Part shown: positions 4,802 through 64,000 of the stretch, piece after piece
How the letters are laid out: every line of letters begins with the position of its first letter
How positions within the stretch are numbered: the first letter of the stretch is position 1
NCBI GenBank assembly: GCA_963803975.1
Contig: CAWDOY010000012.1
Location: 8,486-72,485 of the forward strand
Length of the DNA stretch: 64,000 bases
Source of the DNA: an uncultured delta proteobacterium
GTDB lineage: Bacteria; Desulfobacterota; WTBG01; CAIYCZ01
Direction of reading: 5' to 3'
The notes under the pieces: model-generated
What the model was told of the DNA's origin: nothing
What the model saw: the letters and a program-made list of their open reading frames with translations, nothing else
The model's database searches: none
Program-made: the position numbers and the translations under genes

Positions 4802-4869
4802 GTTTTTAACCTCCTTTTGTTTATCTGCATGACAGACAGCTATAGCGATGCAGCAGCAGGGGTTTTTGT

Positions 4870-6351
4870 TCAGAATTCATATTTTACTGAAAGCCCCACT
4901 TGATTGCCATATTTGTCGAGATGCTTGTTTAAATCCTGATAAAAGAGAACAAACTGCCAGTGGAAAGTGGGCATATAGACTAACTGGGGCAGCAAGGTGC
5001 GGCTGCCGTTTGTGTCATACGATATGTTAAACACGGTGGTCAGGGTGCTGAATAAAAAAGTGGTTGATGCGGTAAAGCTAAATTTGGTCTGTGATGAATC
5101 CTTGCCTGTTTCACCGATTATGTATTCGCCAGTGGCCTTATTATGTTCATGATCAAACATATAGTACTGATACCAGGTAAAGGACAAACTGAACGGCTCA
5201 TTCCGGTTCATATCGGATATCCAGGGAACCATGGTTTTTCTGTCAAACGTGAGAGCAGTAGTAAGAAGTCTTCTCTGTTTAATAGCACTGACACTGTTAG
5301 CAGCCGTGCCATAATTGTAATCCCGGCTTGTGTTAAAAGCACATTCACCCCTGATGGCCGAGCGAAGCTTTGACGAGGTGGTGGAAAAACAAAAGGCAGT
5401 AGAGTTGTAGCGCGGGTACGTCCATACTTTACGGGAAGTATCACCGAGCAGCATGAGGAGTAATAAATTAGTCTGCCCCTCTGCGCCGTTTATGAGCGGG
5501 GAGTCAAGCCTGGTATAAAAATGAGAGAGATACCAGTCCACACCTTCACCTATTGTGGAGTATCCCCGTATTCTCAACCCAACTTCACAATTGTTCCAGC
5601 TGGAACTCGGGGCATCCCTTCGCTGTGCATCAAGAACCCGCTGGAACCAATTGCTCGGCAGTATGGGGAGTGGCATTGGGGACTGCCCGACGTAAGCGCC
5701 ATGCCCTGCGGGCGGGACTCTCGTTCCAATAAAGGTAGATGGTATTACAAGAAATTCAAACGACATATCCTGCCACCAGTTTTCCGGCCGCCAGAACATC
5801 CGTGCCATCCAGAGACCCATCTTATAGTCCTCCCAGTCCGGAAAAGCGATTATATACTTCAAATTAAGAGGGTTGATAACGTCTGCCACACGTGCTTCAG
5901 CAGTCTCCCCCCAGCTTACCAGCTGCTTGCCCAAACGGAGCTGAAAGGTTTTATACTTTACATCAAAGTAAGCCTCCTTGAGATACTCTTCGCTGTCGCT
6001 CGGCCTTTGGACGTTATTATAATAACTGCGGCCAGCTTCTTGTCCGACTGAGTATCTCATATTCGAGTCTATATCAAGAACATAGTCATAATAGTAATTG
6101 GCAAGTGAATAAAATTGAATATCAAGCTCAGGGCAGCTCACTATTTTGTATAAAGCTTCACCTCGTACCGTTGTCCTGAAGCTGTTATACCGTATATTGC
6201 GTTCATCCTGATGAGTTTTTACATTCAGTGTCTGCTGAATACTCCCCTTAAAATCCAGCTTTCCATCGTACAACGATAAGGGAAATGCACTGCTCTGCAG
6301 TAAAAACAGCAATGCAATTACCATGAAAAGATTGAAAAATGTTTTTTTCAT
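4870..6351 (-). CDS. DUF1302 family outer-membrane beta-barrel protein
   Basis: Signal peptide; LKEAYFD..LRLGKQLVSWGE..VADVINP; C-terminal VGLSVKYEF (terminal Phe). Confidence 0.8.
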   Translation of the reverse strand: MKKTFFNLFMVIALLFLLQSSAFPLSLYDGKLDFKGSIQQTLNVKTHQDERNIRYNSFRTTVRGEALYKIVSCPELDIQFYSLANYYYDYVLDIDSNMRYSVGQEAGRSYYNNVQRPSDSEEYLKEAYFDVKYKTFQLRLGKQLVSWGETAEARVADVINPLNLKYIIAFPDWEDYKMGLWMARMFWRPENWWQDMSFEFLVIPSTFIGTRVPPAGHGAYVGQSPMPLPILPSNWFQRVLDAQRRDAPSSSWNNCEVGLRIRGYSTIGEGVDWYLSHFYTRLDSPLINGAEGQTNLLLLMLLGDTSRKVWTYPRYNSTAFCFSTTSSKLRSAIRGECAFNTSRDYNYGTAANSVSAIKQRRLLTTALTFDRKTMVPWISDMNRNEPFSLSFTWYQYYMFDHEHNKATGEYIIGETGKDSSQTKFSFTASTTFLFSTLTTVFNISYDTNGSRTLLPQLVYMPTFHWQFVLFYQDLNKHLDKYGNQVGLSVKYEF

Positions 6352-6442
6352 TTCTACCCCTCCTCCTCACGGAAAATTTTTTTACGTTACCGTTTTATAG
6401 AAACACCCCGTGAATATCTATGCTAAATAGCCCTTCAGGCTA

Positions 6443-8803
6443 TTAATTTGAAGTCTTATTTATAAGAAACTTTGGTTTTAATAAAAATACCAGTACCGGA
6501 ACGAGAAATATCGCTCCAAGACAGTTCAGAAAGAGTATCACCGCCAGCATCATGCCCATCTGTGCCTGGAACTTGAGGGGTGATAAAGTCCAAATCAGCA
6601 GCCCGAGCACTAGGGTGCCGGCAATATAGATTATGGATTTGCCATACGACTGTATGGTGCAAATCAGCGCCTCAGCCAGCGACCGTGAGGGGTCCCTCCT
6701 CTTTTCCTCTTCAAGACGTGCCAGAAAATATATTCCGTAATCAACCCCCATGCCGATTCCTGCAGCAGATACCGGCAGCGTGGAGATGGAAAGGCCGATC
6801 TGGAATATTGCCATGTAGGCAAATGCTATCCAGTTTGAAAGGAGAAGAGGGATGGTAAGTATCAACCCAGCTTTAATTGACTTGAACTCAAGGGTACAGA
6901 AGAAAAACACTCCAAGCAGGGCTATGAGCAAAGTTTGGAGTTGCTTCTCTGCAACAACCTCGTTTATAGCAGCTTCCACCCCGATAACACCTCCCGCAAG
7001 CTTATATGAAACCGCGTCATTTGCTTTGAGCACTGAATGCTCATTCATAAAAGCTCGTGCTGTATCAATAGCCTTTTTTATAGTGGGGCCGGTTTTATCT
7101 TTGAAAAGAACGACAATATTTGTGTACTGGTCATGATAATCCATGAACCGCTCCACAAATCCGGGATCCCCGCCGCTTGCCAGCTGTTGAAACAGGTGGA
7201 TGATATCGAACTCGGCGTCCGGAAACCCGTACCACTTGGGGTCATCAGCATGCATACCCTGATTCATGCCCAGCAAGAGCTGTACAATATTCTGTGTGCC
7301 TGCCGATCCGGAGTTCTTCTCCATATAGCGGCTGAAGTGATATATATCTTTTATCACCCTGCCCGTTTTTATTGCATACCTCTGTGAACCTGAAACAATA
7401 ATGTACAGCGGATTTATTAATGGGTGGGTCTTGTTTATGCGCTCGCTGTCCTGGTTGTAGCGGGAGGAAGGATAGAGGTAATTAGAGCCGACCTCAGCGT
7501 CTCCAACAATGAGGCGCTCTGACCAGTAATAGGAAAACACCAAAATGATCAGCACGCTGACGATGACCGTATTTCTCCCGCGGCGTGCTAAGAGCCAGGG
7601 ACCCAGCCAATCGGCAAATCTGTTTGCCAGCCCTGTCCTCTTTTTATCCTTTTCCCGCTCTTTTTCTATATGCTTTAAAAATTTTTTAGAAATGGGGCAG
7701 TAGGTTAGCAGCACCGGGGTTAGAATAAGGCCGATAAAAACTGTTATTATAGACCAGAAAGCACAGGCGATTGAAATGTTGCGAAGCATTGGTATGGGCA
7801 CAATTGCCACGATGGCAATCCCGAAGGCGTCGGTTATGACACTGGTCAGACCCGGAAGAAACATCTCTTGAATGATGGTCTTTGCAGCCTGCTGCTGGTC
7901 ACCGTGGGTTATATATTCTTCGTAGAAGCGGTTGTACAGCTGGTGGGAGTGGCGGAACGCCATGAGCCCGATGAGAAACGGCATCACAAAAATAAGCGGA
8001 TCTAAATTGTATCCCATAAGGCCCATAAATCCCAGGCCCCAAATCCCTGAGATAATCCCTGCTGAAGGAACAAGAAACGTTGGCCAGAGAGACCTGTAGG
8101 CAAAAAACAGCAATACCGGAATCACCAGGGCTGTGCAGATAAGAATATAATTAATCGTATCGACCATGTTCCCGATTATTCCGATGTGCATGGGATAACC
8201 CACAATGCAGAGCCTGTGCTGATCATCCTCCACCGTATCGCGTATCCTGGTGAGGCCCTGGTAGATCAGATTATAGTCAAGTTTTTCCTCGTAAAAATCG
8301 GCCGTGATCAGGGAGTTCTTGCAGTCATTCGACACATAAGTTCCGTAGTACATCATGTTAGAAAAAATCGAATCCTTCAGCTTCTTCATTTCCTGTTCTG
8401 TTTTAGGGATTTCAGGCCACATGAGATAATTGGTCTCGATGCCCCATGAGGTGAATTTGAACGTGCTGAATTTCTGGTGGGCAATGGAGAGGATTTTGTG
8501 CCGGTCAATGCCCGGAATGGTGAGCAGCTCATCGGTCACATATTTTATCTTCCCAAGAGTTACCTGATTAAAAATGTCCCCGCTTTTGACCTGAAGCAGC
8601 ATGATTAGCTGATTTGCCCCGCCGAAATTCTCCTGAAACTCCTTGTGTATCTTAATGTAGGGATGGCTTTGCGGCAAAAGATCACCAAAGCTGGTCATAA
8701 CGTTTAATTTGGGTATCTGCGTGGCCCACAGCACGGTAACAATTGCGGTGAGTATAAGGATGACTGCGCGAAACCGTACAGTCACTTCAGCAAACTTCTT
8801 CAT
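6443..8803 (-). CDS. RND/MMPL family transporter
   Basis: 786 aa, duplicated TM architecture; DLLPQSHPY, FGGAN, GIGMGVDYGIY. Confidence 0.9.
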   Translation of the reverse strand: MKKFAEVTVRFRAVILILTAIVTVLWATQIPKLNVMTSFGDLLPQSHPYIKIHKEFQENFGGANQLIMLLQVKSGDIFNQVTLGKIKYVTDELLTIPGIDRHKILSIAHQKFSTFKFTSWGIETNYLMWPEIPKTEQEMKKLKDSIFSNMMYYGTYVSNDCKNSLITADFYEEKLDYNLIYQGLTRIRDTVEDDQHRLCIVGYPMHIGIIGNMVDTINYILICTALVIPVLLFFAYRSLWPTFLVPSAGIISGIWGLGFMGLMGYNLDPLIFVMPFLIGLMAFRHSHQLYNRFYEEYITHGDQQQAAKTIIQEMFLPGLTSVITDAFGIAIVAIVPIPMLRNISIACAFWSIITVFIGLILTPVLLTYCPISKKFLKHIEKEREKDKKRTGLANRFADWLGPWLLARRGRNTVIVSVLIILVFSYYWSERLIVGDAEVGSNYLYPSSRYNQDSERINKTHPLINPLYIIVSGSQRYAIKTGRVIKDIYHFSRYMEKNSGSAGTQNIVQLLLGMNQGMHADDPKWYGFPDAEFDIIHLFQQLASGGDPGFVERFMDYHDQYTNIVVLFKDKTGPTIKKAIDTARAFMNEHSVLKANDAVSYKLAGGVIGVEAAINEVVAEKQLQTLLIALLGVFFFCTLEFKSIKAGLILTIPLLLSNWIAFAYMAIFQIGLSISTLPVSAAGIGMGVDYGIYFLARLEEEKRRDPSRSLAEALICTIQSYGKSIIYIAGTLVLGLLIWTLSPLKFQAQMGMMLAVILFLNCLGAIFLVPVLVFLLKPKFLINKTSN

Positions 8804-8817
8804 GTGCCATGCCCCTG

Positions 8818-9861
8818 TCAGTTAAAATATATTCCGGAGCTTCTTTTCCATTCAGCACCTGCGTTGTCAGTGTAGAGTATTGTTCCCCGGGCGCCTACGA
8901 TCCAGCCGTGTTTTCCACTGCTAAAAGCCATGCCTCTCAGCCAGAATTTAGTTCCCAGCGCAGACTCAAGAAGCTTCCACGTATTACCGCCATCAGAAGA
9001 AACCATATAACTTCCATGTGCCCCTATAGCCCAGCCTTTTTCTCCCACTACGGTAACCTGGTAAAGGGTAAAATCGGTCTTGGGGGTCAGCCGCTTCCAG
9101 GTCTTGCCGCCGTCCTCGGTTTTAATAATGATCCCGTCCATGCCTGTTGCCCAGCCGACAAGAGGTGATTTGAAGTATACCCCGTAGAGATTCGGGGGAG
9201 GGGGAGGAAAATCCTTTTCAGCCTCTTCGGGCTGAATCTCATTGCATACTTGCGGACTCCAGGTCATGCCGCCATCTTCCGTATGGTAGATGACACTGTA
9301 TTCGCCAACGATCCAGCCTTTCTGGGCATCAAAGAAATAGACCCCGTTGTAATACCGGTCTTCACCGCGGCCCTGCTTTACCCAGGTCTCCCCCCCGTTG
9401 CCGGTATGCAGAATGGTGCCCATAGTACCGACAGCCCAGCCGGTCTTTATATCTATGAAATGCACATCAAACAACCGCTGATCAGTGTTTGTTTCCTGTT
9501 TTGTCCACGTTTTACCGCCGTTGCTGGTATGGAAAACCGTCCCCCGCTGCCCAACCATCCATCCGTTGTCCGTATCAACAAAACATAGGTCATACAGATC
9601 TACTGCAACCGGTGGTTTCTGGGTTTCCCAGCTTTTTCCCCCGTCTGATGTGTGAAGAACAATTCCTTCAAACCCGGCAATCCAGGCATGACTGCTTCCC
9701 TGGGACTCCACGGCAAACAGATGTTCAGTCGTAACCATGGGCCTGCGACTTCGGGCATTGCCAGTGAGTTGATTCGCTTCATTTCCCTTACTTAAGCATC
9801 CTTCAAGAATCAGAAGCAGGATTACCCATAGGAAGGCGTGCTTTTTGACTGATGTATCCAT
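8818..9861 (-). CDS. YCF48-like BNR-repeat beta-propeller lipoprotein
   Basis: Repeated Asp-box motifs (HTSDGGKSW, HTSNGGKTW, HTGNGGETW, HTEDGGMTW, KTEDGGKTW); lipobox-like LEGC. Confidence 0.9.
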   Translation of the reverse strand: MDTSVKKHAFLWVILLLILEGCLSKGNEANQLTGNARSRRPMVTTEHLFAVESQGSSHAWIAGFEGIVLHTSDGGKSWETQKPPVAVDLYDLCFVDTDNGWMVGQRGTVFHTSNGGKTWTKQETNTDQRLFDVHFIDIKTGWAVGTMGTILHTGNGGETWVKQGRGEDRYYNGVYFFDAQKGWIVGEYSVIYHTEDGGMTWSPQVCNEIQPEEAEKDFPPPPPNLYGVYFKSPLVGWATGMDGIIIKTEDGGKTWKRLTPKTDFTLYQVTVVGEKGWAIGAHGSYMVSSDGGNTWKLLESALGTKFWLRGMAFSSGKHGWIVGARGTILYTDNAGAEWKRSSGIYFN

Positions 9862-9867
9862 AGTCCC

Positions 9868-11355
9868 CTAATAACCTTCAATAAAGCCAATGTTAGGATT
9901 CATGATATTCGCCGGGTCAACAGCCTGCTTGAGCTTCTTTGCAGCTTCGTAAAAGTTACCCGTTATATTACAGGTAAGCGGGTCCCTGCCCACGGTCCAA
10001 AGCCCTCCCCCCATCAGCCAGGGAACTGCACCCATATTGTGAATAACCTCCCATACACCCTTCACATGGTCGGGACTGGTATGGTCAAAGGCAAAAATGT
10101 ACTCTGCAATGACATAGTGCCCCCACTGGTAGGTATACAACTGTGCACCGCTGGCAATCTCTCCGAAACCGGGTTCAGGATAGTCCATATAGGCCTTGAC
10201 CTTCTGCGTGCCTTCCTCACATAATCTTACATACTCGGGTACCTGGTCCACTGACAAATACCCCATGTTGCTCATAATCATCCCCAGATGCCGCATCAGG
10301 CGCGGGCTGTTAGACTGACCCCAGCCCTTGATATTCTGCTCATGGCCACGGTACACTTCCACCAGTTCTGGCGGCGCAATGCGTCCGCCGTGCTTTCTGA
10401 TGATCTTTTCTGCAAGCTTCGCCTGATAATCTACCGCTCGCACTGTCCCTTCTACCCCCATTCCCAACATGTACTTGGGTGAAGCCTTGGCAAGGCGTAT
10501 CCCCTCTGAGCGCGTCTCTGCCGAATAAGCAGCCTGTGTCCAGGCTGGCATCACAAACAATCCCCTTCCGATGTCTTTATGCAGCAGTTCAATTAAGCAA
10601 TCTGTTGGCGTGTTAAAATCCTCAAAATATGCCCAGATGCTCTTGTATGCATCAGGATATGGATGCAGGCTCCACGTGATTCGGGTGCAAACCCCCAGTG
10701 ATCCCAGAGCAAAAAACGGGAAATATGTCATTGTCGGCCCGGGGCCCTGCATCCAGTGATTGACTCCAAAGATATTGGCTCCTGAAGAAGTGTTAAAAAC
10801 CGTCCCATCCGGAAGTACCATCTCAAGTGAAAGGATATTTTGCAGCCCTACGCCATACTTCAATCCTGCAAACTTATTGATTCCCTGAAAGATATTGGTG
10901 GCATTATTGAGAGAGGGGCCAGGCGCCCCGGTAAAGTAGGGTCGCCACCGGAAGTTCTCCTCTTCCACCAGCTGTTTGAAATACCCCGTCAGCGTTGTCA
11001 CAAATACCCCGGCCTCTACCGTTACGGTCAGGTTCTCGCGGTCCAGATGGATACCCCTCATCCGCTTCATGTCGATCATGATCCCGCCGGTAACCGGGAT
11101 GGAGCCGGCAAGAACTGCGGCTCCGCCGCCAATGAGGTGCACCGGGATGTTATACTGATTGGCGATGCGCAGCACATTCTGCACATCAGGGGTTGACCCC
11201 GGCAGCACCACGATATCAGGCAGTCTTTCCGGGTATACTTTCAAACTGTCAGTAAATAAGTCCCGCGAGTAGGGAATACAGTCAATGGGTTCATTCGACA
11301 CATATTCTTTTCCCAGGATATCTTCGAGCTTCTTTTTTATTTCACTCAGCATCAC
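9868..11355 (-). CDS. FAD-binding oxidoreductase (GlcD/VAO-PCMH family)
   Basis: PDIVVLPGST, LIGGGA, IMIDMKRM, VTVEAGV, LEMVLPDG, KQAVDPANIMNP. Confidence 0.9.
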   Translation of the reverse strand: MMLSEIKKKLEDILGKEYVSNEPIDCIPYSRDLFTDSLKVYPERLPDIVVLPGSTPDVQNVLRIANQYNIPVHLIGGGAAVLAGSIPVTGGIMIDMKRMRGIHLDRENLTVTVEAGVFVTTLTGYFKQLVEEENFRWRPYFTGAPGPSLNNATNIFQGINKFAGLKYGVGLQNILSLEMVLPDGTVFNTSSGANIFGVNHWMQGPGPTMTYFPFFALGSLGVCTRITWSLHPYPDAYKSIWAYFEDFNTPTDCLIELLHKDIGRGLFVMPAWTQAAYSAETRSEGIRLAKASPKYMLGMGVEGTVRAVDYQAKLAEKIIRKHGGRIAPPELVEVYRGHEQNIKGWGQSNSPRLMRHLGMIMSNMGYLSVDQVPEYVRLCEEGTQKVKAYMDYPEPGFGEIASGAQLYTYQWGHYVIAEYIFAFDHTSPDHVKGVWEVIHNMGAVPWLMGGGLWTVGRDPLTCNITGNFYEAAKKLKQAVDPANIMNPNIGFIEGY

Positions 11356-12595
11356 GTCCGCCCCTTTTCTTTCTTTCCGTTTCGCCGAAAACCGACTGGC
11401 TCAGAAGTTTCACCACGTCCACGAGCTCAAGCTTTGATCCCGAGGTGCTGATAAAATCAAGAAAGTTCTGGGCGCAGAACGGGCATGAGGTGGCCAGATA
11501 CGAGGCGCCGCTGGCCTCGGCCTCCTTCACGCGCCGGCTGGCTGTGGCCATGGCGAATTCAAGCTTCCCGGTCCGCGCGCCGCCGCCTCCGCCGCAGCAG
11601 AAGGAGTATTCCCGGATGCGCTTCATCTCGTTCAGCTTGATGCCGGGGATCGCTTTCAGGATATTTCGCGGCGGGTCAAAAATCTTACTGTGCCTGCCGA
11701 GATGACAGGGGTCATGATAGGTAACGGTCATGTTGACCGGGTGCTTGGGCACCAGCTTTTTCTGTCCCACTAAATCTGCAAGCATGACCACCGCGTGCTT
11801 GACCTCGAAGTTGCACGCGCCCAGCTGCGGGTAGACATTTTTGATGGTATTGAAACAGCCGGAGCAGGGGGTGACGATGGTCTTGATGCCGGAGGCGTTA
11901 AATGCCTGGATGTTGTCCGAGGCGTACTTCTCCAGCACATTAACATAGCCCAGGTTAAAGGCGGTGGAGCCGCAGCACTTCTCCTCGTTGCCCAGTATGC
12001 CGAAATCAACCCCAGCCGCGTTCAGCAGCCGAGCGATGTTCTGGATATTTTCCGTGATGCGCGGGTCATAGGCATAGGTGCAACCCGGATAGAACAGGAC
12101 TTCAGCCTTTTCCTTGCCCTTGGAGAGGTCCTTGAGTTTAAAGTCAAGGCCGCGGGTCCAGGAGGTGCGGCGCGCGCGGGGCTGGCCCCAGGGGTTGTCG
12201 TAGGCTTCAAGGTTCTGGATTATGACGCGCTGCGCGGGAAGCGGTCCCACGCCTGCCTCGACCGCCTTGGAGCGCATCCAGCGGATAATGTCAGTTGGTT
12301 TCAGCACATTGGTGCGCTCGCAGGTGTACTGGCAGAAGCCGCAGGTGGTGCAGGAGTAAATGGCGTCGACCACCCGGTCAGACCACTGCAGCTGTCCGCG
12401 CTGCAGGGCAAGAGCAGCGTAGTTGCGCCCTGACGGGTAATAGGATTCAAAAAAGTAGTTGGTCCCCGACGGGCACTGCAGTCCGGTCTCATCGCCCATG
12501 ATCTGCTCCGCGTGCACGGTCCTGCAGGTGCCGCAGCGGGCGCAGAATGAAGCCTTCTTGAACATCTCTTCATCGAATTCAAATTTATATTTCAT
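11342..12595 (-). CDS. Fe-S oxidoreductase with CCG domains (GlcF/HdrD-like)
   Basis: CARCGTC, CTTCGFCQYTC, YPGC, EEKCCGS, YHDPCHLGR, FCCGGGGG, TSCPFC. Confidence 0.9.
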   Translation of the reverse strand: MKYKFEFDEEMFKKASFCARCGTCRTVHAEQIMGDETGLQCPSGTNYFFESYYPSGRNYAALALQRGQLQWSDRVVDAIYSCTTCGFCQYTCERTNVLKPTDIIRWMRSKAVEAGVGPLPAQRVIIQNLEAYDNPWGQPRARRTSWTRGLDFKLKDLSKGKEKAEVLFYPGCTYAYDPRITENIQNIARLLNAAGVDFGILGNEEKCCGSTAFNLGYVNVLEKYASDNIQAFNASGIKTIVTPCSGCFNTIKNVYPQLGACNFEVKHAVVMLADLVGQKKLVPKHPVNMTVTYHDPCHLGRHSKIFDPPRNILKAIPGIKLNEMKRIREYSFCCGGGGGARTGKLEFAMATASRRVKEAEASGASYLATSCPFCAQNFLDFISTSGSKLELVDVVKLLSQSVFGETERKKRGGRDAE

Positions 12596-12602
12596 ATTTA
12601 TT

Positions 12603-14039
12603 TTACCGTAGAGCCAGTTTCCCTGGATTCATAATGTTATTGGGATCATAGAGATCTTTCAGTAATTTTATTTTTCGGTGATATGCCCCCATCCTGGAAT
12701 ATACCGATTCGGCCCACATGGGGTACGGGCGTGGAAAGAACCCCCCGGCTCTTATCAATGTTTCGCTCATGTGCTTGAATCGCTGTTTTGCTTTTTGGGT
12801 CTGCTGTTCATCAGAGGGGTCATAATACACACTGGGCTCAAAGTAGTAACTCCCGCCAAAATTAAGCGGCATTATCATCCACCCGAGATCTTCCTCACCA
12901 CTGCCGTTGGTGCCAGCAGCCTGCATGGTAAGCTTGTAAAAAGTCCGCAGCTGGGAGTTCGATGCCATACAGGCGATGTAGGCGCATCCCCCTCGATAGC
13001 GCCGCTGGTTGAGCATACCGCGTGGACTGTCTATCTCTGCCATCATCCGGGCTTCTAAATCAGCTTTAACAGCCAAACCCTTAGCCAGGGATTTGAGGTT
13101 GAATTTCTTCAGCACATCCGCCATGTCAAGATTTTTATACGCAACCTCTTCTTCATCGTTTCCGGAGAGCCCGATCACCGCTGTCCACGCAGGGAGCGCT
13201 TTTTCAAGTTCATCAATTTCCTGTTTATCTTTTGCCAGAAGGCAGGAAAGATAGCGGCTGTTTGCGACAAAAAATTCATCGTTAGCCTCCTGCCGCATAA
13301 GGGCAGAACAAAGCTCCGGGAGAATGTCGATGCTATCAAGTTCGATAAAAAGATAGTTCCGGTTCGCAACTATATTTTTCAGCGTTACCGCTGCTTTTAC
13401 TGCAATACCCAGCGTGCCTTGCGCGCCAAAAAAAAGCCTGTTTATGACTGCAAAATTGGTCGCCCAGTGATACGGGCGATCCGAGTTTTGCATCGCCATT
13501 TGGCCTGTTCCCATCAACTCCCCTGTGGGAAGTATCATTTTAAGACTCAGCGTCTCCCAGGTCTTGTAGCGCGGCCACAGGTAGAGTGGCGTGTTCTCCA
13601 GATACGTGGTTAAAACCGATGCTTCTGCCGGTATGCCTACCGGCGTCATTGGCCTTAACCCGGCTTTTTTTGCCTCAAAAGACAACTGAGTAAAAGTTAC
13701 TCCGGGCTCGATAATTGCGTTTCGCGCAACTCTATCTATCAAGTCTATTCTATTCAATCGGCGCAAATCCACGGTTATCCCGCGCTCAGTTGGAATGTGC
13801 GCTCCCTGATAAGTCGTGCCAGAACTGAACGGAAACAATGCTACCTTTTCACGGTTTGCCAGTCGCACGACAGCCTGTATCTCTTCAGCCTCTCCGGGGC
13901 GTACTGCGCACAGCGGTCTCATGGGCTTTACGAAACTGCCGTCCTCGCTATATATCTCAAGTTCCCGCGAATCAGTTATCACATGGTCTGATCCGACTAT
14001 CTCCTGCAGTGTTTCAATAATATACTTTGCATCTGCCAT
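12603..14039 (-). CDS. FAD-binding oxidoreductase (GlcD/VAO-PCMH family)
   Basis: PLCAVRPG, PFSSG, ITVDLRRLN, IIEPGVTF, GAQGTLGI, KDLYDPNNIMNPGKL. Confidence 0.9.
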   Translation of the reverse strand: MADAKYIIETLQEIVGSDHVITDSRELEIYSEDGSFVKPMRPLCAVRPGEAEEIQAVVRLANREKVALFPFSSGTTYQGAHIPTERGITVDLRRLNRIDLIDRVARNAIIEPGVTFTQLSFEAKKAGLRPMTPVGIPAEASVLTTYLENTPLYLWPRYKTWETLSLKMILPTGELMGTGQMAMQNSDRPYHWATNFAVINRLFFGAQGTLGIAVKAAVTLKNIVANRNYLFIELDSIDILPELCSALMRQEANDEFFVANSRYLSCLLAKDKQEIDELEKALPAWTAVIGLSGNDEEEVAYKNLDMADVLKKFNLKSLAKGLAVKADLEARMMAEIDSPRGMLNQRRYRGGCAYIACMASNSQLRTFYKLTMQAAGTNGSGEEDLGWMIMPLNFGGSYYFEPSVYYDPSDEQQTQKAKQRFKHMSETLIRAGGFFPRPYPMWAESVYSRMGAYHRKIKLLKDLYDPNNIMNPGKLALR

Positions 14040-31059: not shown

Positions 31060-32562
31060 TTGCGGAAAGGTCTTGAACTTTATGGGGTGATTGTCATGCG
31101 CATCATGCTTGTCCATCCGGCCGGATCAAACTGGGTCCCCGGGGAAAAGGATATTACCGCCACAGCAAACAGGATGGCCCCCCTGGGCCTGCTTTCGATT
31201 GCCGCATACCTGAAGCGCAGCGGGCACCAGGTATTCATTCATGACTGTCTTGGCCCTGAGGCGCCGCAGGGCATACGGGAAAACGTACAAGCCGTGCTCG
31301 CCCCTGCTCCTGACCTGGTCGGCTTTTCAACGACGACGTCCAGTTTCCTGGACGGCAACAACATGGCAACACTGATTAAAGAAGCCAGCCCGCGGGTCAA
31401 AACCGTCTTTGGCGGCGTGCATGTGTCTGCGCTGGGCGGGGCGCTGCTGCAGGACTTTCCCCGCATCGATTATTTGTCTCCCGGAGAGGGCGAGGTGACC
31501 CTTTCTGAACTGGCCTCCGGTCAGGACCCTGCCTCTATCGACGGGCTTATCTGGCGTGATGGTGAAAGGATTGTGACCAATGCGCCCCGCTCGCCGCTGC
31601 CGGATCTGGACCAGCTTCCTTTTCCTGATTATGAAAGCTTGAAGGGTTTTCCCCGGTCATACAACCTGCCCCTGTTCAGCTTCATTGGATTTCCCGGCGC
31701 AACCATGTCCACCAGCCGCGGATGCCTCTATGAGTGCTCGTACTGCGACCGGTCTGTCTTTAAGCGCTCCTACCGGTACAACTCTCCGGAATATATCTAC
31801 GAGCACATGCTGCACCTGCGGCAGCGCTTTGGCGTCCGGCATATCAATATCTATGATGATTTGTTTACCCTCAACAGGCCCCGCATTTTCGAGCTGTGCC
31901 GTCTTTTGATTGCAAAGCCCCTCGGCATACAGTTCAACTGCGCTGTCCGGGTAGGGCATGCCGACAATGATCTGCTGAAGCTGCTGAAAGATGCAGGCTG
32001 CCTCATGGTATCAATGGGTATCGAATCGGCTGATCCGGCGATGCTCGCGCGCCATAAATCAGGGGTTACCCTTGATGAGGTCAGAGACACCGTTGACCGG
32101 ATCAAAGCCTGCGGCCTCAGGGCCAAAGGGCTGTTCATGATGGGTCTCCCGGGCGAAACAGAAGCATCGATTCAGGCAACAAGCGACTTTGTGATTTCCC
32201 TTGGGCTGGATGACATGAACATGTCGAAATTTACGCCTTTTCCGGGCGCGCCCATCTGGTCAACGCTGCGCGAAGAGGGGACCTTTCAGGAGGACTGGCA
32301 GTTAATGAACTGCCTTAATTTCGTCTTCGTACCGAAGACCATCGAATCAAAAAAAAAGCTCGACTACCTGTACAACCGGCATGTAAAGCGCTTCTACTCC
32401 GACCGGACCTGGCGCCGGAAATTCGCCCGACGCTTATGGCAGCACCGGTGGAGCATTCTCCATCTCCTGCGGCACCTGCCGTCTTTCCTTGCAGCCAAAC
32501 GGCATTTTGAGCCGGATAATGCCCTGAATTCACACGATAGTGATGTTGGCTTCGTCACATAA
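31060..32562 (+). CDS. B12-binding-domain radical SAM protein (class B methyltransferase-like)
   Basis: APLGLLSIAAYL, TVFGGVHVS, GEGE, TSRGCLYECSYC, GIES, FMMGLPGET, TPFPG. Start is likely ATG 31096. Confidence 0.92.
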   Translation: MRKGLELYGVIVMRIMLVHPAGSNWVPGEKDITATANRMAPLGLLSIAAYLKRSGHQVFIHDCLGPEAPQGIRENVQAVLAPAPDLVGFSTTTSSFLDGNNMATLIKEASPRVKTVFGGVHVSALGGALLQDFPRIDYLSPGEGEVTLSELASGQDPASIDGLIWRDGERIVTNAPRSPLPDLDQLPFPDYESLKGFPRSYNLPLFSFIGFPGATMSTSRGCLYECSYCDRSVFKRSYRYNSPEYIYEHMLHLRQRFGVRHINIYDDLFTLNRPRIFELCRLLIAKPLGIQFNCAVRVGHADNDLLKLLKDAGCLMVSMGIESADPAMLARHKSGVTLDEVRDTVDRIKACGLRAKGLFMMGLPGETEASIQATSDFVISLGLDDMNMSKFTPFPGAPIWSTLREEGTFQEDWQLMNCLNFVFVPKTIESKKKLDYLYNRHVKRFYSDRTWRRKFARRLWQHRWSILHLLRHLPSFLAAKRHFEPDNALNSHDSDVGFVT

Positions 32563-54243: not shown

Positions 54244-54482
54244 ACTATACTATTTCCTGCTCTTCCTTACATCCTGATAACGTTATTTTTATCAATGCTC
54301 AAAATTTGAGCAATGTGCTGAATCTCTTTTTGCTGTGCGGCTCTGAATTGTTTTGAACCGGGGTTTATAACAGGATTTCCACAAAAGCTGTGGAATTTTA
54401 TGTTACGGTAGCATATGATAATTTAAAAAGCATTGGTATAGTATCATTAAGATTCCGAATCCCCGGCTCTGGTAAAACAGGT

Positions 54483-55313
54483 ATGATGGAAAATAATAAA
54501 TATCTGCGCTTGTTCCCGCTTCTTTGTTTTGTTTTTGTTTTCCCTATCCTTTCTCTTTGTTCAGCCGGCAGCGCGGCAACCCTTTATGAGCGCTCTCTTG
54601 AAAAATTTCAGGCCAAGGCAGAAAAGGCTTCATCAAAAGAGTTTGTTTTCGTGGTCCTCGGGGACAGCAGGGATAATGATAAAATTTATAAAAAATCTCT
54701 TACTCTTGCCGCACAGTTCAACCCGCTCTTTATCCTGCACACCGGCGATATCAGCAACACAGGCAGCAAAAAAGAACTGGATCACTTTCTATCACTGTCG
54801 GAGAATACGATACCTGACATTCCCCTGTTTGTTGTTTTCGGTAACCATGAATTACATGACGGCAAAAAATTGTTTGAGCAGACGATAGGTCCGCTCAACT
54901 ATGTTTTTGAAAGTGCTAAGCTGAATATTAAAACTATTGTGCTGGACAATGCAGAGTACTCTTTGAAGCCTGACCAGTTGAACTACCTGCGCAGCCAGCT
55001 TCTTAACCGACGGGTTTTTACCTTTGTTGCCATGCACATACCTCCTAAAACCAGGCGGTGGACATGGCATTCCTTCTCAGATGGTGCAGATGATTTGATG
55101 CAGACATTATCCGCCGGCAAAGTAAGCCTCTCTTTTTTTGGACATATTCATCAGTGCGATGAGGATGAAATCAAGGGCGTGAAATGTATAGTTAGCGGCG
55201 GAGCCGGCGCTCCGCTTAACAGATTTTTCCTTCCCGGGAAACCGGTGTATCACATAATAGTGGTAAAAGTTAAAGACGGAACGGTTTCATATACTGTCGA
55301 AAACGTCCTGTAA
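54483..55313 (+). CDS. Secreted calcineurin-like metallophosphoesterase
   Basis: GDSR, HTGD, GNHE, MHIP, GHIH, SGGAG; start uncertain (54390-54486). Confidence 0.9.
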   Translation: MMENNKYLRLFPLLCFVFVFPILSLCSAGSAATLYERSLEKFQAKAEKASSKEFVFVVLGDSRDNDKIYKKSLTLAAQFNPLFILHTGDISNTGSKKELDHFLSLSENTIPDIPLFVVFGNHELHDGKKLFEQTIGPLNYVFESAKLNIKTIVLDNAEYSLKPDQLNYLRSQLLNRRVFTFVAMHIPPKTRRWTWHSFSDGADDLMQTLSAGKVSLSFFGHIHQCDEDEIKGVKCIVSGGAGAPLNRFFLPGKPVYHIIVVKVKDGTVSYTVENVL

Positions 55314-55376
55314 TGAACAGCAGGAACAGAACGTTCATAGCATCCTGCCGCAGATATATGCTGGAGGAATAGACCC

Positions 55377-55844
55377 TTGTATACTCAGGAACAGCTGGCA
55401 CGACGCAAAGCATCGCCATGGACACGGGTGGTCTCGGCTCTTGCTCCAACCCAATTTATAGCTTTTGTTATCAGCTTTTATTTCGTGCTGCAATTTATTT
55501 TAACAAACCAGGGATACCTTGCGGCAACCGTCAGCGTCTGGATTAAAATAATCCTGCTCTGGGCAATTACCATTGCCGGCATGCTCTGGGAAAAGGATGT
55601 CTATGATCATTATTTTATGGCGCGGGAATTCTTCTGGGAGGATTTCGGCAACCTGGTTGCCATGATAACGCACAATGCGTATTTTATAGTCCAGTATCTT
55701 GGCTGCAGCGAGCGGGACGTGATGCTGGTGATGCTGTTTGCCTATTGCACCTATCTCTTCAACTTCGGCCAGTTTATGGTGAAATATTTCAGATCGCTGC
55801 GGCAGCGATACGCGCTGGTAAAGGAGAAACGCAATACATTATAG
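55377..55844 (+). CDS. bchF: BchF-like 3-vinyl bacteriochlorophyllide hydratase
   Basis: YTQEQLARRKASPWT..LAPTQF..K..TIAGMLWEKDVY....AREFFWED....H..Y..AY.TYL.N..QF matches the BchF pattern (YTPEQ..RR..S.WT..Q..LAP.QF; G..WEK; FFWED; AY..Y..N..QF) over the full length; GGAGG RBS before TTG. Confidence 0.85.
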   Translation: MYTQEQLARRKASPWTRVVSALAPTQFIAFVISFYFVLQFILTNQGYLAATVSVWIKIILLWAITIAGMLWEKDVYDHYFMAREFFWEDFGNLVAMITHNAYFIVQYLGCSERDVMLVMLFAYCTYLFNFGQFMVKYFRSLRQRYALVKEKRNTL

Positions 55845-55925: not shown

Positions 55926-56306
55926 TTATCTTTTTTTTCGCGGCTGTTTCTCTGCTGCTGAATCCTCAACCTGGTCCAGGTGCAGCTGGTGCAGGAAGCG
56001 GTGCATCACCGGGGCAAGCAGGGTCCCCGCAACAACTAAAAAGATAATCCCTGAGAAGAGCGCGTAACCGGAAGCGAAAATCTTTCCTCCGGTCGTCTGT
56101 AGTTCGTTCACCGGCCCCATGCCGCCAAGGATCATTGAGGCGTTCAGAAGAGAATCAACCCAGGGCAGCCCCTCCAGCACATGGTACCCGGTGATACCTG
56201 CGCCCAGTGAGACGAAAAGTGTGAGCAGCGCGATGAGCCAGTGCCGTAAGAGTCGGCGCACAAACAGGCGCCGGGAGAGAAGCGGCTGTGAGCGGTGCTC
56301 ATACAT
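55926..56306 (-). CDS. Small two-TM protein resembling a K+-channel pore module
   Basis: GYHVLEGLPWVDSLLNASMILGGMGP..TTGGKIFAS; TM-pore helix-TM layout without the TVGYG filter. Confidence 0.6.
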   Translation of the reverse strand: MYEHRSQPLLSRRLFVRRLLRHWLIALLTLFVSLGAGITGYHVLEGLPWVDSLLNASMILGGMGPVNELQTTGGKIFASGYALFSGIIFLVVAGTLLAPVMHRFLHQLHLDQVEDSAAEKQPRKKR

Positions 56307-56358: not shown

Positions 56359-58306
56359 TTATTCTGCAACCAGCCCCAGTTTCTGCATCCCGGGAATCAT
56401 ATCAGCAAGTTTCAGGTCTTCAAGAGTTTTTCTCTTCTGCAGCCCGGTTTTCACGTCCCAGCCCCGGATAGCGTAATATTCATCCAGCATCTTTTCAAAC
56501 CGGTCACGCTCAAGCACCGCGCCTTTTCGCGATATGAGCTCTCCGTTCGGCCCGGGGAGCATAAAATCAGGGTTAAAGACACCCAGGAAACCTGCTTCCT
56601 CTTCCATTTTGTCCGTGAAATAAAACTCGTTTACCCGGTCATCTTTTCTGCCCGCGCGGCCCTCTTTGCCCTGAATAGCGCGCTGCAGGTTAAATACCCG
56701 CTCCCCGGTTTTGTAATAGCCTGCTTCATCACATTCAATACCGGTCACGGCTGTTAGCAGGCGGCTCTCAAGCGTGGGGTCGCCGGTATGGTCCTCGGCT
56801 CCGTCAGCCATGGTAAGCGGATAGAAAAAGTCGCAGGCCACCAGGTTTTCCTTGGCGTACTGACGGTTCTGGATCAGTGCCGCGACATCGGCCTTCCCCT
56901 CATAGGTTGAGAAGTCAACCGCTTTCTCGCTGAGCCAGAATTTTTTTGCTGCCTTCAGCAGCACTTCGGTGCTGAACGGTGCCATGGCTCCGTCGGTCGC
57001 GTACCACATCACCCATTTCATTACCGGGAAGCACACTTCGTGCAGCTGGTTCATGGTGCTGGTCGATTCCGTGGCATAAAACAGAGCGTTGGTGATAAAG
57101 TAGCGCGGGTTGTATGCTTCAGCGTTAAACCCGCTCCGGGTCATCCGTTTTTCAAGAAGTTTTTCCGCGCCGTTGCCAACAATATGTCCCGCCCTCATCG
57201 TTCCTTCTGCCAGCGCCTCACCTATGCCCTTGCGTGAGATGATCATGTCGGTCAGCCGCTCTATGAATTCAAGGCTTCCCATCTGCGAAAGGGAAATGCC
57301 AGCGCTTTCATCGGTGATAATACCCTGCCTGACACATGCTTCAAGAAAATAGAGGAGGTTTCCCAGCTCCTGCGTGCACAGGCCGTACCTGTTGGCAAGG
57401 GATGTTGCAAGGAACGGGTCAGCAGTTGACTCGCCATGGTATTTCATGTCCCAGAGATAATACATGTAGACTGACTGGCAGTTTTTTCTGACCTCCTCCC
57501 GTCCTGACACATGTTTATACAGACCCCGCGGGCAGCCTGAAGGGCATCCCGGGCAGGGCGTCCGTTTAATGAGCTCCAGCCCTTCAACGTTGGGGTCCAT
57601 GAGAATCTTTCCTTCAATAAGAGACCTGATCTGGCTGTTCACTGCCTTGAGATCATCCGGTCGCGCCACAGAAACTTTCTGCGAGCCGGCTGCCACCACT
57701 GCCTTGAGATTTTTAGAGCCCATCACCGCGCCGAAGCCGCTCCCGCCGCACGCACCGTGATCGCTCATGGCAAGGGCAAGGCGCACCAGTTTTTCCCCGG
57801 CAGGGCCGATACACACAGCAGTTAGAAGCATCCCCGTGCGCTTTATGCAGACGCTCAAGCGTTGCAAAGGTATCCAGCCCCCAGAGCCCGGCCGCATCTT
57901 TCAGCTCCAGCTTTCCATCATTGAGGTAGATATAGACGGGCTTTGCGGCTTTGCCGGTAATAATAAGGCCGTCATAGCCTGCGGCCTTAAGCTTTACGCC
58001 AAAACTTCCGCCCACGCTTCCCAGGCCGAACTGCTCAGGATACAGGAGCGGTGACTTGCCGGCGATAAACCAGCGGCTGCCGGCGATGGCAGAGGTTCCC
58101 GCAAGCGGGCCGGTCATAAACATCAGGGGGCTGTCAGGATGCAGGGCAGCAGTTTTTGTATCAACCTCGTCCCAGTAGATTTTTGAGATAAAACCCCGCC
58201 CCCCGACAAATCTTTCCGCCAGCTCAGCAGTCAATACGGGCTGCGTTTCCCCGGTGGTGAGGTTTACCCTGAGCATAACCCCTGTCCAACCATACATTGT
58301 TGCCAT
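56359..58306 (-). CDS. Aldehyde:ferredoxin oxidoreductase (W/Mo AOR family); frameshift near 57825
   Basis: YGWTGVMLRVNLT, FVGGRG, TGPLAG, KSPL, LKAAGYDG; then CIGPAGE, GAVMGSKNLKAV, CPGCPSGC, YYAIRGWD. Confidence 0.9.
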
Positions 58307-61822: not shown

Positions 61823-62863
61823 TTACCGCACATTTGCCGCCCGGGGAATAAATAACGCCTGCCGCTTGCGCTTCAGGGCCTTATCCACTCCTTCCAGTAT
61901 ATCTTCGACCTGGGGCAGAACATACTGCTCCAGCACCGGGCTGAACGGCACGGGAACGTCTTTCGCGGCCACTCGCACCACCGGCCCTGCCAGATGCTCA
62001 AACAGCTCTTCCCCGATGCGGGCGGCGATCTCTGCGCCAAAGCCGCCGGTCAGGCATGCTTCGTGGACCACCACGACATGTTTGGTTTTTTTCACTGACC
62101 GCGCGATAAGATCAAAGTCCAGGGGCTTGAGCGTTCGCAGATCGAGCACTTCAGCCTGAACGCCCTTTTCCTCGAGCTTTTGTGCTGCCTCAAGACATAC
62201 ATAGGTCATGCGCGAATAGGTGATCAGGGTGATGTCGGTCCCGGCCCGCTTTACATCTGCTTTTCCCAGCGGGATCAGGTAGGGCTCATCAGGCACCGGG
62301 CCGGTCTGTTTGAACAGACGCTTGTGCTGAAAAAATATGACCGGGTCATCGTCGCGCACCGCTGCTTTCAGCAGGCCCTTCACATCAGCCGGCTCGGACG
62401 GCACCACCACTTTGAGCCCCGGCGTGTGCACCAGCCAGCTCTCCAGGCTTTGTGAATGCTGGGCAGCAGCGGAGATACCTGCTCCGTCAGGCGCCCACAG
62501 CACCATGGGCAGCTTTGCCTGGCCGCCGAACATATAGTGGATTTTTGCCATCTGGTTGACGATTTCATCCATGGCGGTGGTCACAAAATCAGCAAAGTGC
62601 ATGTCAACGATGGGCCGCATGCCGGTCAGGGCTGCTCCCACGCCGCTGCCGACAATGCTGGTTTCGGAAATGGGCGTATCAATGACCCGGCCGGGAAATC
62701 TTTCCGGCAGGCCCTTGAACTGGCAGAAGATGCCGCCGTTGCTGACCAGGTCTTCTCCCAGAATAAACACCGTGTCATCCCGCTCCATCTCTTCGGCAAG
62801 GGCTTCAGCGATTGCCTGTGAGCAGGTGATTTCTCGCACTGCCATGGTTACCCTCTCCTTCAC
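61823..62863 (-). CDS. acoB: TPP-dependent acetoin/2-oxoacid dehydrogenase E1 beta subunit
   Basis: FILGED, DTPISE, GMRPIV, DEIVNQMAK, AAQHSQ, DLRTLKPLD. Confidence 0.85.
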   Translation of the reverse strand: MKERVTMAVREITCSQAIAEALAEEMERDDTVFILGEDLVSNGGIFCQFKGLPERFPGRVIDTPISETSIVGSGVGAALTGMRPIVDMHFADFVTTAMDEIVNQMAKIHYMFGGQAKLPMVLWAPDGAGISAAAQHSQSLESWLVHTPGLKVVVPSEPADVKGLLKAAVRDDDPVIFFQHKRLFKQTGPVPDEPYLIPLGKADVKRAGTDITLITYSRMTYVCLEAAQKLEEKGVQAEVLDLRTLKPLDFDLIARSVKKTKHVVVVHEACLTGGFGAEIAARIGEELFEHLAGPVVRVAAKDVPVPFSPVLEQYVLPQVEDILEGVDKALKRKRQALFIPRAANVR

Positions 62864-63827
62864 GGATTGACGTACAAATCTTTCAAAGCATCTTCAGGCT
62901 CAGGCAATGGTGAATCAAGCCCGAACTGTACTGCTGCTTCTATACACGCGGCTGTTTCAGCGCGGATCTCCGCCACCGCCTCTATAGTCAGACACCCTTC
63001 TTCAATGAGGAGCCGCTCGAACTTATCAATAGGATCGCGGTTTTTCCGGTACATGTGGATTTCATCCATGCTGCGGTACTTCTGCCGGTCGCCTTCAAAG
63101 TGGCCTTTGTAGCGATAGGTCTCATTTTCCACAATGGCCGGGCCGTGTCCGCTGCGGGCCCACTCCACCGCCTCATGCACCACTTCCAGCACCTCCAGCA
63201 CATTGCTGCCGTCCGTGATATAACCGGGGATGCCGTAGGCCTTGGCCCGGCCGGCCACAGATCCGCCGGCAACCATTTTTTCAGCCGGCGAGGTGGAGGC
63301 ATAGCCGTTGTTCTCGCAGACAAAGATGATGGGGAGCTTAAAGACAGCCGCCATGTTGCAGGCTTCATGAAACGTGCCCCGGTTGGACGCGCCGTCGCCG
63401 AAAAAAACCATCCCCACCTGGTCGGTCTTGCGCAGTTTGATGGAAAGGCCGGCGCCCACCATGATAGGAAATCCTCCTCCCACGACGCCGTTGGCGCCGA
63501 GAATGCCCCGGGAAAAGTCAGCGATATGCATGGAGCCGCCTTTACCTTTGCAGTATCCGGTGGCCGGCCGAACAGCTCGGCGAACATGTAGCGGGGATCA
63601 GCGCCCTTGGCCAGAATGTGCGCGTGGCCGCGGTGGGTCGAGATAATATAATCATCAGGCCGCAGAGCCATGCAGCTGCCGGTGGTGGAAGCCTCCTGGC
63701 CGATGGACAGATGGACAAACCCGGGGATGAGCTTCTGCTGAAAAAGCGCCTCAGCCTTTTCTTCAAAAGCCCGGATCAGCAGCATCCTCTTTAACAGCGA
63801 CAGCTTTTTCTCTCTGTCGATCTCCAC
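62860..63827 (-). CDS. acoA: TPP-dependent acetoin/2-oxoacid dehydrogenase E1 alpha subunit; frameshift near 63565
   Basis: IRAFEE, PGFVHLSIGQEA, STHRGHAH; then GGSMHIAD, ANGVVGGG, FFGDGASN, ENNGY, TYRYKGHFEGD; GTG start at 63827. Confidence 0.85.
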
Positions 63828-64000
63828 GTCTTCCTCTCTGCGAATGAAAAGTGCGGGCTGCGCGTGTACCGCGTTTCCCTGCGCGGTCATGCAGTATATA
63901 TATATATACGTTTGACTACCGGATTTCCCCCGCGGAGTATTCAGGGGGGAGGAAAATAGAGCGCAAGTTTGTAAATATAAAGGAAGTTCAACTGGGTGTC

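Follow-up and report, generated by a model that had tools for sequence, protein, structure and literature searches.

A BchF-family gene in a non-phototrophic Desulfobacterota genome, possibly an accessory enzyme for imported chlorophyll-type pigments

We found that the gene at 55377-55844 of the window (the whole stretch of DNA analysed, 64,000 nucleotides, positions 8486-72485 of contig C12 of the host genome, G000) belongs to the BchF family, that it is under purifying selection yet dispensable, and that its host is non-phototrophic by the tests run, the assembly line for bacteriochlorophyll (BChl) a/c (BchC, BchXYZ, BchG, BchHID, BchM) being missing from the genome. What, then, does such an organism do with BchF? 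From gene content and sequence comparison we lean, if not heavily, towards a role as an accessory side-chain enzyme in the heterotrophic handling of imported chlorophyll-type pigments. The gene and its surroundings are as follows.

54390..55313, + strand: metallophosphoesterase (PF00149), upstream of and co-directional with bchF; likely start 54486
55363..55368, + strand: Shine-Dalgarno-like GGAGGA, 8 nt 5' of the bchF TTG, read from the sequence
55377..55844, + strand: BchF-family ORF, 155 open codons, TTG start, TAG stop
55926..56306, - strand: hydrophobic ORF of 126 aa, downstream of and convergent to bchF
56359..58306, - strand: aldehyde:ferredoxin oxidoreductase (AOR), split by a one-base indel near 57824 in the host assembly

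The earlier note had described an intact BchF of 155 aa with a ribosome-binding site, and this was borne out: the frame is open and the ORF matched both the Pfam BCHF profile PF07284 (154.6 bits against a cut-off of 25, profile positions 1-137 of 139) and TIGR02020 BchF (128.1 bits, cut-off 101.35). The predicted structure (mean pLDDT 94.7; alignment input of 127 sequences) has four long helices, at residues 14-43, 47-76, 83-107 and 112-154, and both this number and the length of the protein are within the family range (~150-170 aa, four membrane helices). G68, E72, E88, D89, Y126, N129 and Q132 are invariant in 127/127 aligned BchF rows, the window protein included, and its K57, H99 and Q26 are the state of 62/62 Chloroflexota rows. 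The sole departure among tested residues that are invariant in phototroph BchF is at position 19, where, as the note had remarked, Val takes the place of the Gln present in 61/61 Chloroflexota rows with a residue there. A Foldseek search with the model gave no match at E <= 0.001 and its best structural match was a designed protein (Z 11.2); because the matches were generic four-helix bundles only, we dropped any mechanism from fold searches. A promoter/terminator scan was uninformative (7 promoter-like sites versus 3.2 +/- 1.7).

The closest named relatives are BchF proteins of Chloroflexaceae, 3-vinyl (bacterio)chlorophyllide hydratases, at ~70% identity, which agrees with the Chloroflexi-type affinity given in the note. 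The likeness extends to both HMM cut-offs, the four helices and residues K57, E72, E88, D89, H99, Y126, N129 and Q132. The differences, besides the replaced Gln19, are of context: in Chloroflexales bchF sits in the order pucC-bchF-bchC-bchX-bchI-bchD, whereas the window gene is outside such a context and G000 is without BchC, BchXYZ, BchG, BchH and reaction centres. In named records, the bchF homologs not from Chloroflexota are titled Thermodesulfobacteriota or delta proteobacterium (10/72 loci). PF07284 was found in 11/42 genomes of the host's Desulfobacterota class (12 loci, 3 families), and among 401 genomes of the phylum in three, all within the class, with 0/387 outside it. In a 76-row maximum-likelihood tree, a single clade (98/94) unites 22 rows from the class and the environment and nests in a 100/96 group otherwise made up of Chloroflexales-titled and unlabelled rows; a 32-row tree agrees (class 98/95; class plus Chloroflexota 95/98). 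The outgroup was one sequence taken as Chlorobi-type from its helix 1-2 insertion. AU tests rejected neither Chloroflexota monophyly (p 0.218) nor a clade of the class with Proteobacteria (p 0.061). A single acquisition of bchF from Chloroflexota is the best reading, although it is not proven. On one contig (L076) of a Gracilibacteria-titled genome we also observed a Chloroflexales-type bchF, for which a binning error is likely.

Within the class clade Gln19 is missing in all but one copy, and two subtypes can be told apart. Type 1, to which the window gene belongs, has Val or Met at position 19 (11/11 rows), Lys57 (10/11) and His99 (11/11). Type 2 has Met19 in 34/35 rows and Asn57 in 35/36, and has lost His99 in 35/36, mostly to Tyr (33/36), while it retains E72, D89, Y126, N129 and Q132. 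Since Gln19 is lost across the clade and Lys57 and His99 are lost in type 2, the substrate may have changed, and for type 2 it probably has. The type 2 copies (L085, L091, L092, L110, L174, L175; proteins P0148 and P0418-P0451), which also carry Trp15Leu, form ~35 clusters at 90% identity and lie within tetrapyrrole-fold operons.

Could the host be a phototroph that was overlooked, its genes scattered or its reaction centre unbinned? The earlier note had offered unrecognised phototrophy as one of two explanations, and BchF has been called exclusive to BChl a makers in the available text of Cardona (PMC4783071); crtB- and crtI-like genes are present in G000 as well, matched by probes at ~30%. 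We nevertheless regard hidden phototrophy as highly improbable. Neither type II (PF00124) nor type I (PF00223) reaction centres were found in any of the 42 class genomes, G000 included, 21 of them at least 90% complete (the PF00223 control was cyanobacterial, and PscA/PshA were not separately probed), BchG above cut-off was found in 0/42, and G000 has no protein of the Mg-chelatase H family PF02514. Of 36 annotated probes, taken from photosynthesis-cluster plasmids of Roseobacter and Thiodictyon and run against the whole genome, only that for bchF found an ortholog in G000. These probes gave no match for bchH, bchD, bchG, bchN, bchY, bchJ, pufLM, pufC, puhA, acsF or pucC; those for bchB and bchZ matched nitrogenase-like genes only, at 21-26%, and those for bchM, bchC, bchI and bchP gave short or weak generic matches only. 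Chloroflexales probes for bchC, bchX and bchI reached only 24-37%, and for bchD there was none. The nitrogenase-like genes of G000 score far under the BchB, BchN and BchZ cut-offs and its bchE-like genes far under that of BchE, and no BchM or ring-E cyclase ortholog was found in the genome. Within the 64 kb, the note's statement that no other bch gene can be recognised stands as far as orthologs go, with the nuance that a B12/radical-SAM gene at 31060-32559 has BchE as its top NCBIfam match; since the score is 176 bits where the cut-off is 481, and HpnJ scores equally, we rejected it as a bchE ortholog.

The host makes its own tetrapyrroles, as hemA, hemL, hemC and hemB are present, and has comA and comD above cut-off and acetyl-CoA synthase (ACS beta). 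We observed the coenzyme M genes comA, comD and comE of this bacterium on contig C37 (L281:4949-7175). A scan of G000 for motifs of DsrA, AprA, CcoN (cbb3 oxidase), HemE, AhbC/D and phytochrome found none, but it missed the real hemA too, which makes these negatives weak. The com genes, ACS, crtB/crtI-like genes, bciB, bchF, the lack of chlG and a reaction centre, and the genome's size and GC all fit Ca. 'Anaeropigmentia', and the host is probably a member of it. In the accessible part of their preprint, Murphy et al. (10.1101/2021.03.22.436540) describe this as a non-phototrophic Desulfobacterota class of ~4 Mb genomes with homologs of bchE, bciB, chlLNB, bchXYZ, bchF, bchC and chlP, with crtB/crtI, CoM genes and the Wood-Ljungdahl pathway, and without chlG or a reaction centre, and suggest a photosynthetic ancestor. 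The presence of bchF in such a class was therefore already in print, and in the literature found only this preprint bears on bchF in a host of this kind; the available portion of PMC13446030 held nothing further on the class. That account, as far as its accessible text goes, reads the gene set as near-complete BChl a biosynthesis and possibly a relic, without a BchF tree, a selection test or a catabolic reading. In our host, in contrast, most of the 'bch' genes are distant homologs, BchF and BciB being the only ones near to their counterparts in phototrophs. The present analysis adds the BchF clade and its division into two subtypes, a test for selection, and an expansion of tetrapyrrole-fold enzymes that is specific to the class.

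G000 (4.25 Mb in 57 contigs, GC 0.50, 98.1% complete, 2.1% contaminated) does contain one-base indels and ~120 kb present twice at 88-98%, which might be cited for an artefact of assembly or binning, with Chloroflexi DNA in the bin. We consider this barely credible. The chimeric assembly that the note had named as a refutation is contradicted by four other metagenome contigs (L169-L172) that carry bchF in the same chromosomal region at 83-99% nucleotide identity: L169 aligns with 9.1 kb of the window at 98.7%, L170 with 4.4 kb at 93.6% and L171 with ~10 kb at 86-92%, while L172 has bchF at 87%, flanked by the same helicase and AOR genes as in the window. The GC of bchF (0.46-0.48) is like that of its flanks, the flanks are common to two further class genomes (G001 and G002), and homologs occur in 10 other class genomes. 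The AOR gene is intact in L169 (648 aa), so that the one-base indels of the host assembly look like assembly errors.

A further possibility is that bchF is a functionless relic of a phototrophic ancestor, as in the scenario of Murphy et al. (2021), or a passenger of transfer. Its patchy occurrence (11/42), the long type 2 branches and the two AU results quoted above are in keeping with this, as is a deletion in G001, a genome of the host's genus, where on contig C222 (L249) the counterpart of window 54815-55690 is gone, taking the end of the phosphoesterase gene and most of bchF and leaving the bchF 3' end. It is because of this deletion, and because 21/32 genomes rich in bilin-reductase-like genes gave no bchF match, that we call the gene dispensable. 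We think it very unlikely, however, to be functionless. Its dN/dS is 0.16 versus L170, 0.25 versus L171, 0.14 versus L172 and 0.09 versus L026 (dS saturated), similar to the 0.13 and 0.21 of neighbour genes; frames are open in 11/12 genome loci (that of G015 is without the N-terminal match); the ~35 type 2 clusters have fixed new residues; and the supposed bchLNB, bchXYZ, bchE and bchC partners are distant homologs at 21-35%, far under cut-offs. Versus L171, bchF has a synonymous distance of 0.05, less than the 0.14 and 0.29 of its two neighbours, by recent strain exchange possibly, or by chance. Contigs from two sediment RNA-library runs cover bchF (X2, 54891-55756; X3, 55420-55718), and X1 is without it; these were rejected as evidence of transcription because coverage of the flanks is no different and DNA may have been carried over.

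The window bchF lies outside any tetrapyrrole operon. The note's metallophosphoesterase neighbour was confirmed, but we rejected it as a partner because it is not beside bchF in L172 or at any other class locus; the 126-aa ORF, labelled channel-like in the note and without a Pfam or NCBIfam match, was likewise rejected, since it is not between bchF and AOR in L172 or G012. AOR is the most persistent neighbour, adjoining bchF in L172 and lying directly upstream of it in G012. Across the class, a tetrapyrrole-fold gene (BciB-, HemF-, ferrochelatase- or bilin-reductase-like) lies within ~6 kb of bchF at 5/12 loci. In G010 and G015 a bciB-like gene is immediately upstream, in an operon with marR, two membrane proteins, AOR, a ferrochelatase-like and a flavodoxin-like gene; in G002 a HemF-like gene adjoins bchF; and in G030 and G036 a bilin-reductase-like gene is ~4 kb away. 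Other members of these operons adjoin bchF in G020 and G034. As G010/G015 and G030/G034/G036 share genera, there are about four independent arrangements. Another five loci (G000, both copies of G012, G007 and G013) have no tetrapyrrole-fold neighbour, and three of these have AOR within 7 kb. On L175, which is 90% identical to contig C31 of G000, a type 2 bchF follows genes shared with C31, and the G000 counterparts of these genes sit among HemF-like, ferrochelatase-like and two bilin-reductase-like genes. The ESM Atlas returned only 'SDR' for the SDR next to bciB, and nothing at 0.9 for a recurring membrane neighbour.

Nor is bchF an orphan, as the note had called it, for besides its presence in 11/42 class genomes there are BciB-like and other tetrapyrrole-fold genes elsewhere in G000. 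The BciB/HCAR-like reductase of G000 is 51-57% identical to Chlorobia-labelled proteins and matches HCAR (5DQR, E 9e-76); such genes occur in 14/42 class genomes, including 7 of the 11 with bchF, and we dropped the question of a donor because the BciB tree is unrooted. A chlorophyllase-like hydrolase (PF07224, 124.6 bits) has chlorophyllase 8FJD as its best PDB match (E 1e-25, the next being 1e-4), and was found, with the query used, in only 6/42 class genomes. At C23:37641-43401 (L268) this gene, of lipoprotein type, is followed by DUF169, two SDRs and AOR, and a similar run, AOR-bchF-DUF169-SDR, was observed in G012. Several operon proteins, the chlorophyllase-like one among them, have signal-like hydrophobic N-termini, judged by hydropathy only.

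The ferredoxin-dependent bilin-reductase-like family PF05996 gave 6-22 matches per genome in 32/42 class genomes and was present in 0/291 sampled genomes of the phylum outside the class; bchF occurs in 11/32 of these genomes versus 0/10 of the others, all being kin and so not independent. G000 itself has 23 matches (for example at C39:93300 and C1:147097 and on C24, C31, C8, C25 and C42); clustering at 90% identity reduces these to 15, and a near-duplication of ~120 kb of the bin accounts for part of the drop. The one copy compared with structures matches PebB, PebA and PcyA. G000 also has seven ferrochelatase-like matches (four above cut-off), five HemF-like proteins (two with a Pfam match) and 11 PCP_red matches, PCP_red being found in 36/42 class genomes. 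It has no heme oxygenase, and RCCR and Staygreen gave no match in searches without a positive control. On contig C50 (21882-32287, L099) we observed marR, two NifH-like genes, D-like and B-like (PCP_red) genes, two alpha/beta hydrolases and a fragmentary old-yellow-enzyme whose top NCBIfam match, bilirubin reductase, is far under cut-off (275 versus 750). At C25:52662-56880 and C36:48720-54466 bilin-reductase-like genes adjoin corrinoid proteins, a URO-D-family protein, MtrH and RACo, and it is possible that these groups carry out a demethylation that feeds the Wood-Ljungdahl pathway.

How might these parts fit together? BchF would be a working vinyl hydratase/dehydratase, its gene taken by an ancestor within the class from a green non-sulfur phototroph and kept for pigments that the organism does not itself make. 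The chlorophyll-type pigments of dead phototrophs would be de-esterified and de-metallated outside the cytoplasm by the chlorophyllase-like and ferrochelatase-like proteins, and their side chains then levelled, with the BciB/HCAR-like reductase acting at the C8-vinyl or C7-hydroxymethyl group and BchF interconverting C3-vinyl and C3-1-hydroxyethyl, most likely on a de-phytylated chlorin. Reduction of the ring, or of the products of its opening, might then fall to the nitrogenase-like and bilin-reductase-like enzymes, either to dispose of electrons or to begin the breakdown. In this scheme BchF would be an accessory entry enzyme that widens the range of pigments accepted, and the AOR beside it could, speculatively, oxidise an aldehyde that has come off a side chain or arisen on one. 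This comes close to the note's other suggestion, of a transferred gene repurposed for chlorophyll derivatives; the repurposing has become our favoured reading, and the nesting in Chloroflexota is left unproven by the AU tests. We prefer pigment consumption to a relic because of the class-specific expansion of tetrapyrrole-fold enzymes. Counted against it are the dispensability of bchF, a window locus without a tetrapyrrole operon, the presence of hem genes, the loss of Gln19, a chlorophyllase-like gene in only 6/42 genomes and the alternatives that the AU tests leave unrejected.

Also counted against pigment processing is a BchH/CobN-family protein found in 20/42 class genomes, G000 not among them: the two tested score above the TIGR02025 BchH cut-off, although they are only ~30% identical to annotated BchH, and one follows the bciB operon together with I- and D-like subunits, an arrangement that fits metal insertion. 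Could BchF, the BciB-like and nitrogenase-like reductases and the chelatases therefore tailor an undescribed metallo-tetrapyrrole cofactor or pigment of the organism's own? The hem genes of G000, the class I chelatase-like H, I and D subunits in its relatives, and class II chelatase-fold genes that adjoin nitrogenase-like genes speak for this. We consider it unlikely, because G000 has bchF and the bciB-like gene without a PF02514 protein, ~15 bilin-reductase-like paralogs and a patchy bchF would be needless for one fixed product, BchM and ring-E cyclase orthologs were not found, and several operon proteins bear those signal-like N-termini. In G008 (L148:10903-18154) we observed the BchH/CobN-family chelatase, I- and D-like subunits and feoB directly after the bciB operon; in G026 (L149) such a chelatase belongs to a single gene run that also holds nitrogenase-like, geranylgeranyl-reductase-like and class II chelatase genes.

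A related alternative is that BchF acts on heme, protoporphyrin or a bilin rather than a chlorin, hydrating vinyl groups on heme or phycobilins that the cell has scavenged. The HemF-, HemG-, HemH- and split-barrel-like genes around class bchF and bciB loci, the feoB after the chelatase-like genes of G008 and the loss of His99 in type 2 copies would suit this, but the window BchF retains every tested Chloroflexota-invariant residue except Gln19, and the BciB/HCAR-like and chlorophyllase-like genes indicate chlorins; we therefore regard it as decidedly improbable. Returning to pigment consumption, we tentatively extend it into a wider proposal, about which we have appreciable doubt: that most of the class are anaerobes specialised in consuming chlorophylls, bacteriochlorophylls and bilins, in which BchF and BciB were recruited from phototrophs and bilin-reductase, HemF, chelatase and nitrogenase-like folds expanded into a pigment-degrading or -respiring pathway; that they are agents of side-chain changes and chlorophyll loss in anoxic sediments; and that type 2 BchF, having lost its His, is a new enzyme whose substrates are metal-free or ring-opened.

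Known systems offer partial parallels. Plants break down chlorophyll with chlorophyllase, NOL/NYC1-HCAR, SGR, PAO and RCCR, of which PAO requires oxygen. Chlorophyllase-like, HCAR-like and FDBR/RCCR-fold proteins co-occur in G000; the differences are that plants make no use of BchF and that G000 gave no RCCR or SGR match in those searches. HmuS, a heme de-chelatase of Bacteroides, is described in the available text of PMC12583661 as a chelatase homolog that runs backwards in an anaerobe, and given this precedent the chelatase homolog of the host's relatives could also serve metal removal. What is alike is that an anaerobe turns a family of biosynthetic tetrapyrrole enzymes to the reverse reaction, which for the BchF of G000 is a proposal; HmuS is of another protein family, and G000 is without a CobN/BchH-family protein. 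The pre-PcyA bilin reductases are, in the part of PMC10151467 available, FDBR-family genes of heterotrophs, typically found with heme oxygenase and globins, and among the enzymes named there the fold is common only to RCCR and HemF. They resemble the genes of G000 in occurring in non-photosynthetic bacteria and differ from them in that G000 has ~15 paralogs and no heme oxygenase.

No paper on an anaerobic chlorophyll-turnover pathway of this kind came up in our search, most subscription journals being outside it. A BchF clade that is selected and diversifying in non-phototrophs limits the use of BchF as a marker of BChl a makers, and gives the unexplained bch genes of 'Anaeropigmentia' an alternative interpretation. 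Should the catabolic interpretation be true, organisms and testable enzymes can be named for anaerobic chlorophyll turnover, and BchF, at 155 aa and from a family for which an in vitro assay has been published and mutant hosts for complementation exist, is the easiest entry to them; its reaction is reviewed in PMC7242693, as far as the text available goes.

Elsewhere in the window, a pyruvate-dehydrogenase-alpha-like gene at 62860-63998 is split by a one-base indel, as are many genes on other contigs. A large cluster of fatty-acid/polyketide type occupies 16678-48796, with ketosynthase-like genes and an ACP (both labelled by eye), an MMPL-methyltransferase fusion, an aromatic amino acid lyase, B12 radical-SAM genes and a U32 peptidase-like gene. 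At 3527-14039 two FAD-linked oxidases and a CCG protein are followed by an uptake-type module of DUF1302, DUF1329 and MMPL, and modules of this type recur next to bilin-reductase-like genes on other contigs.
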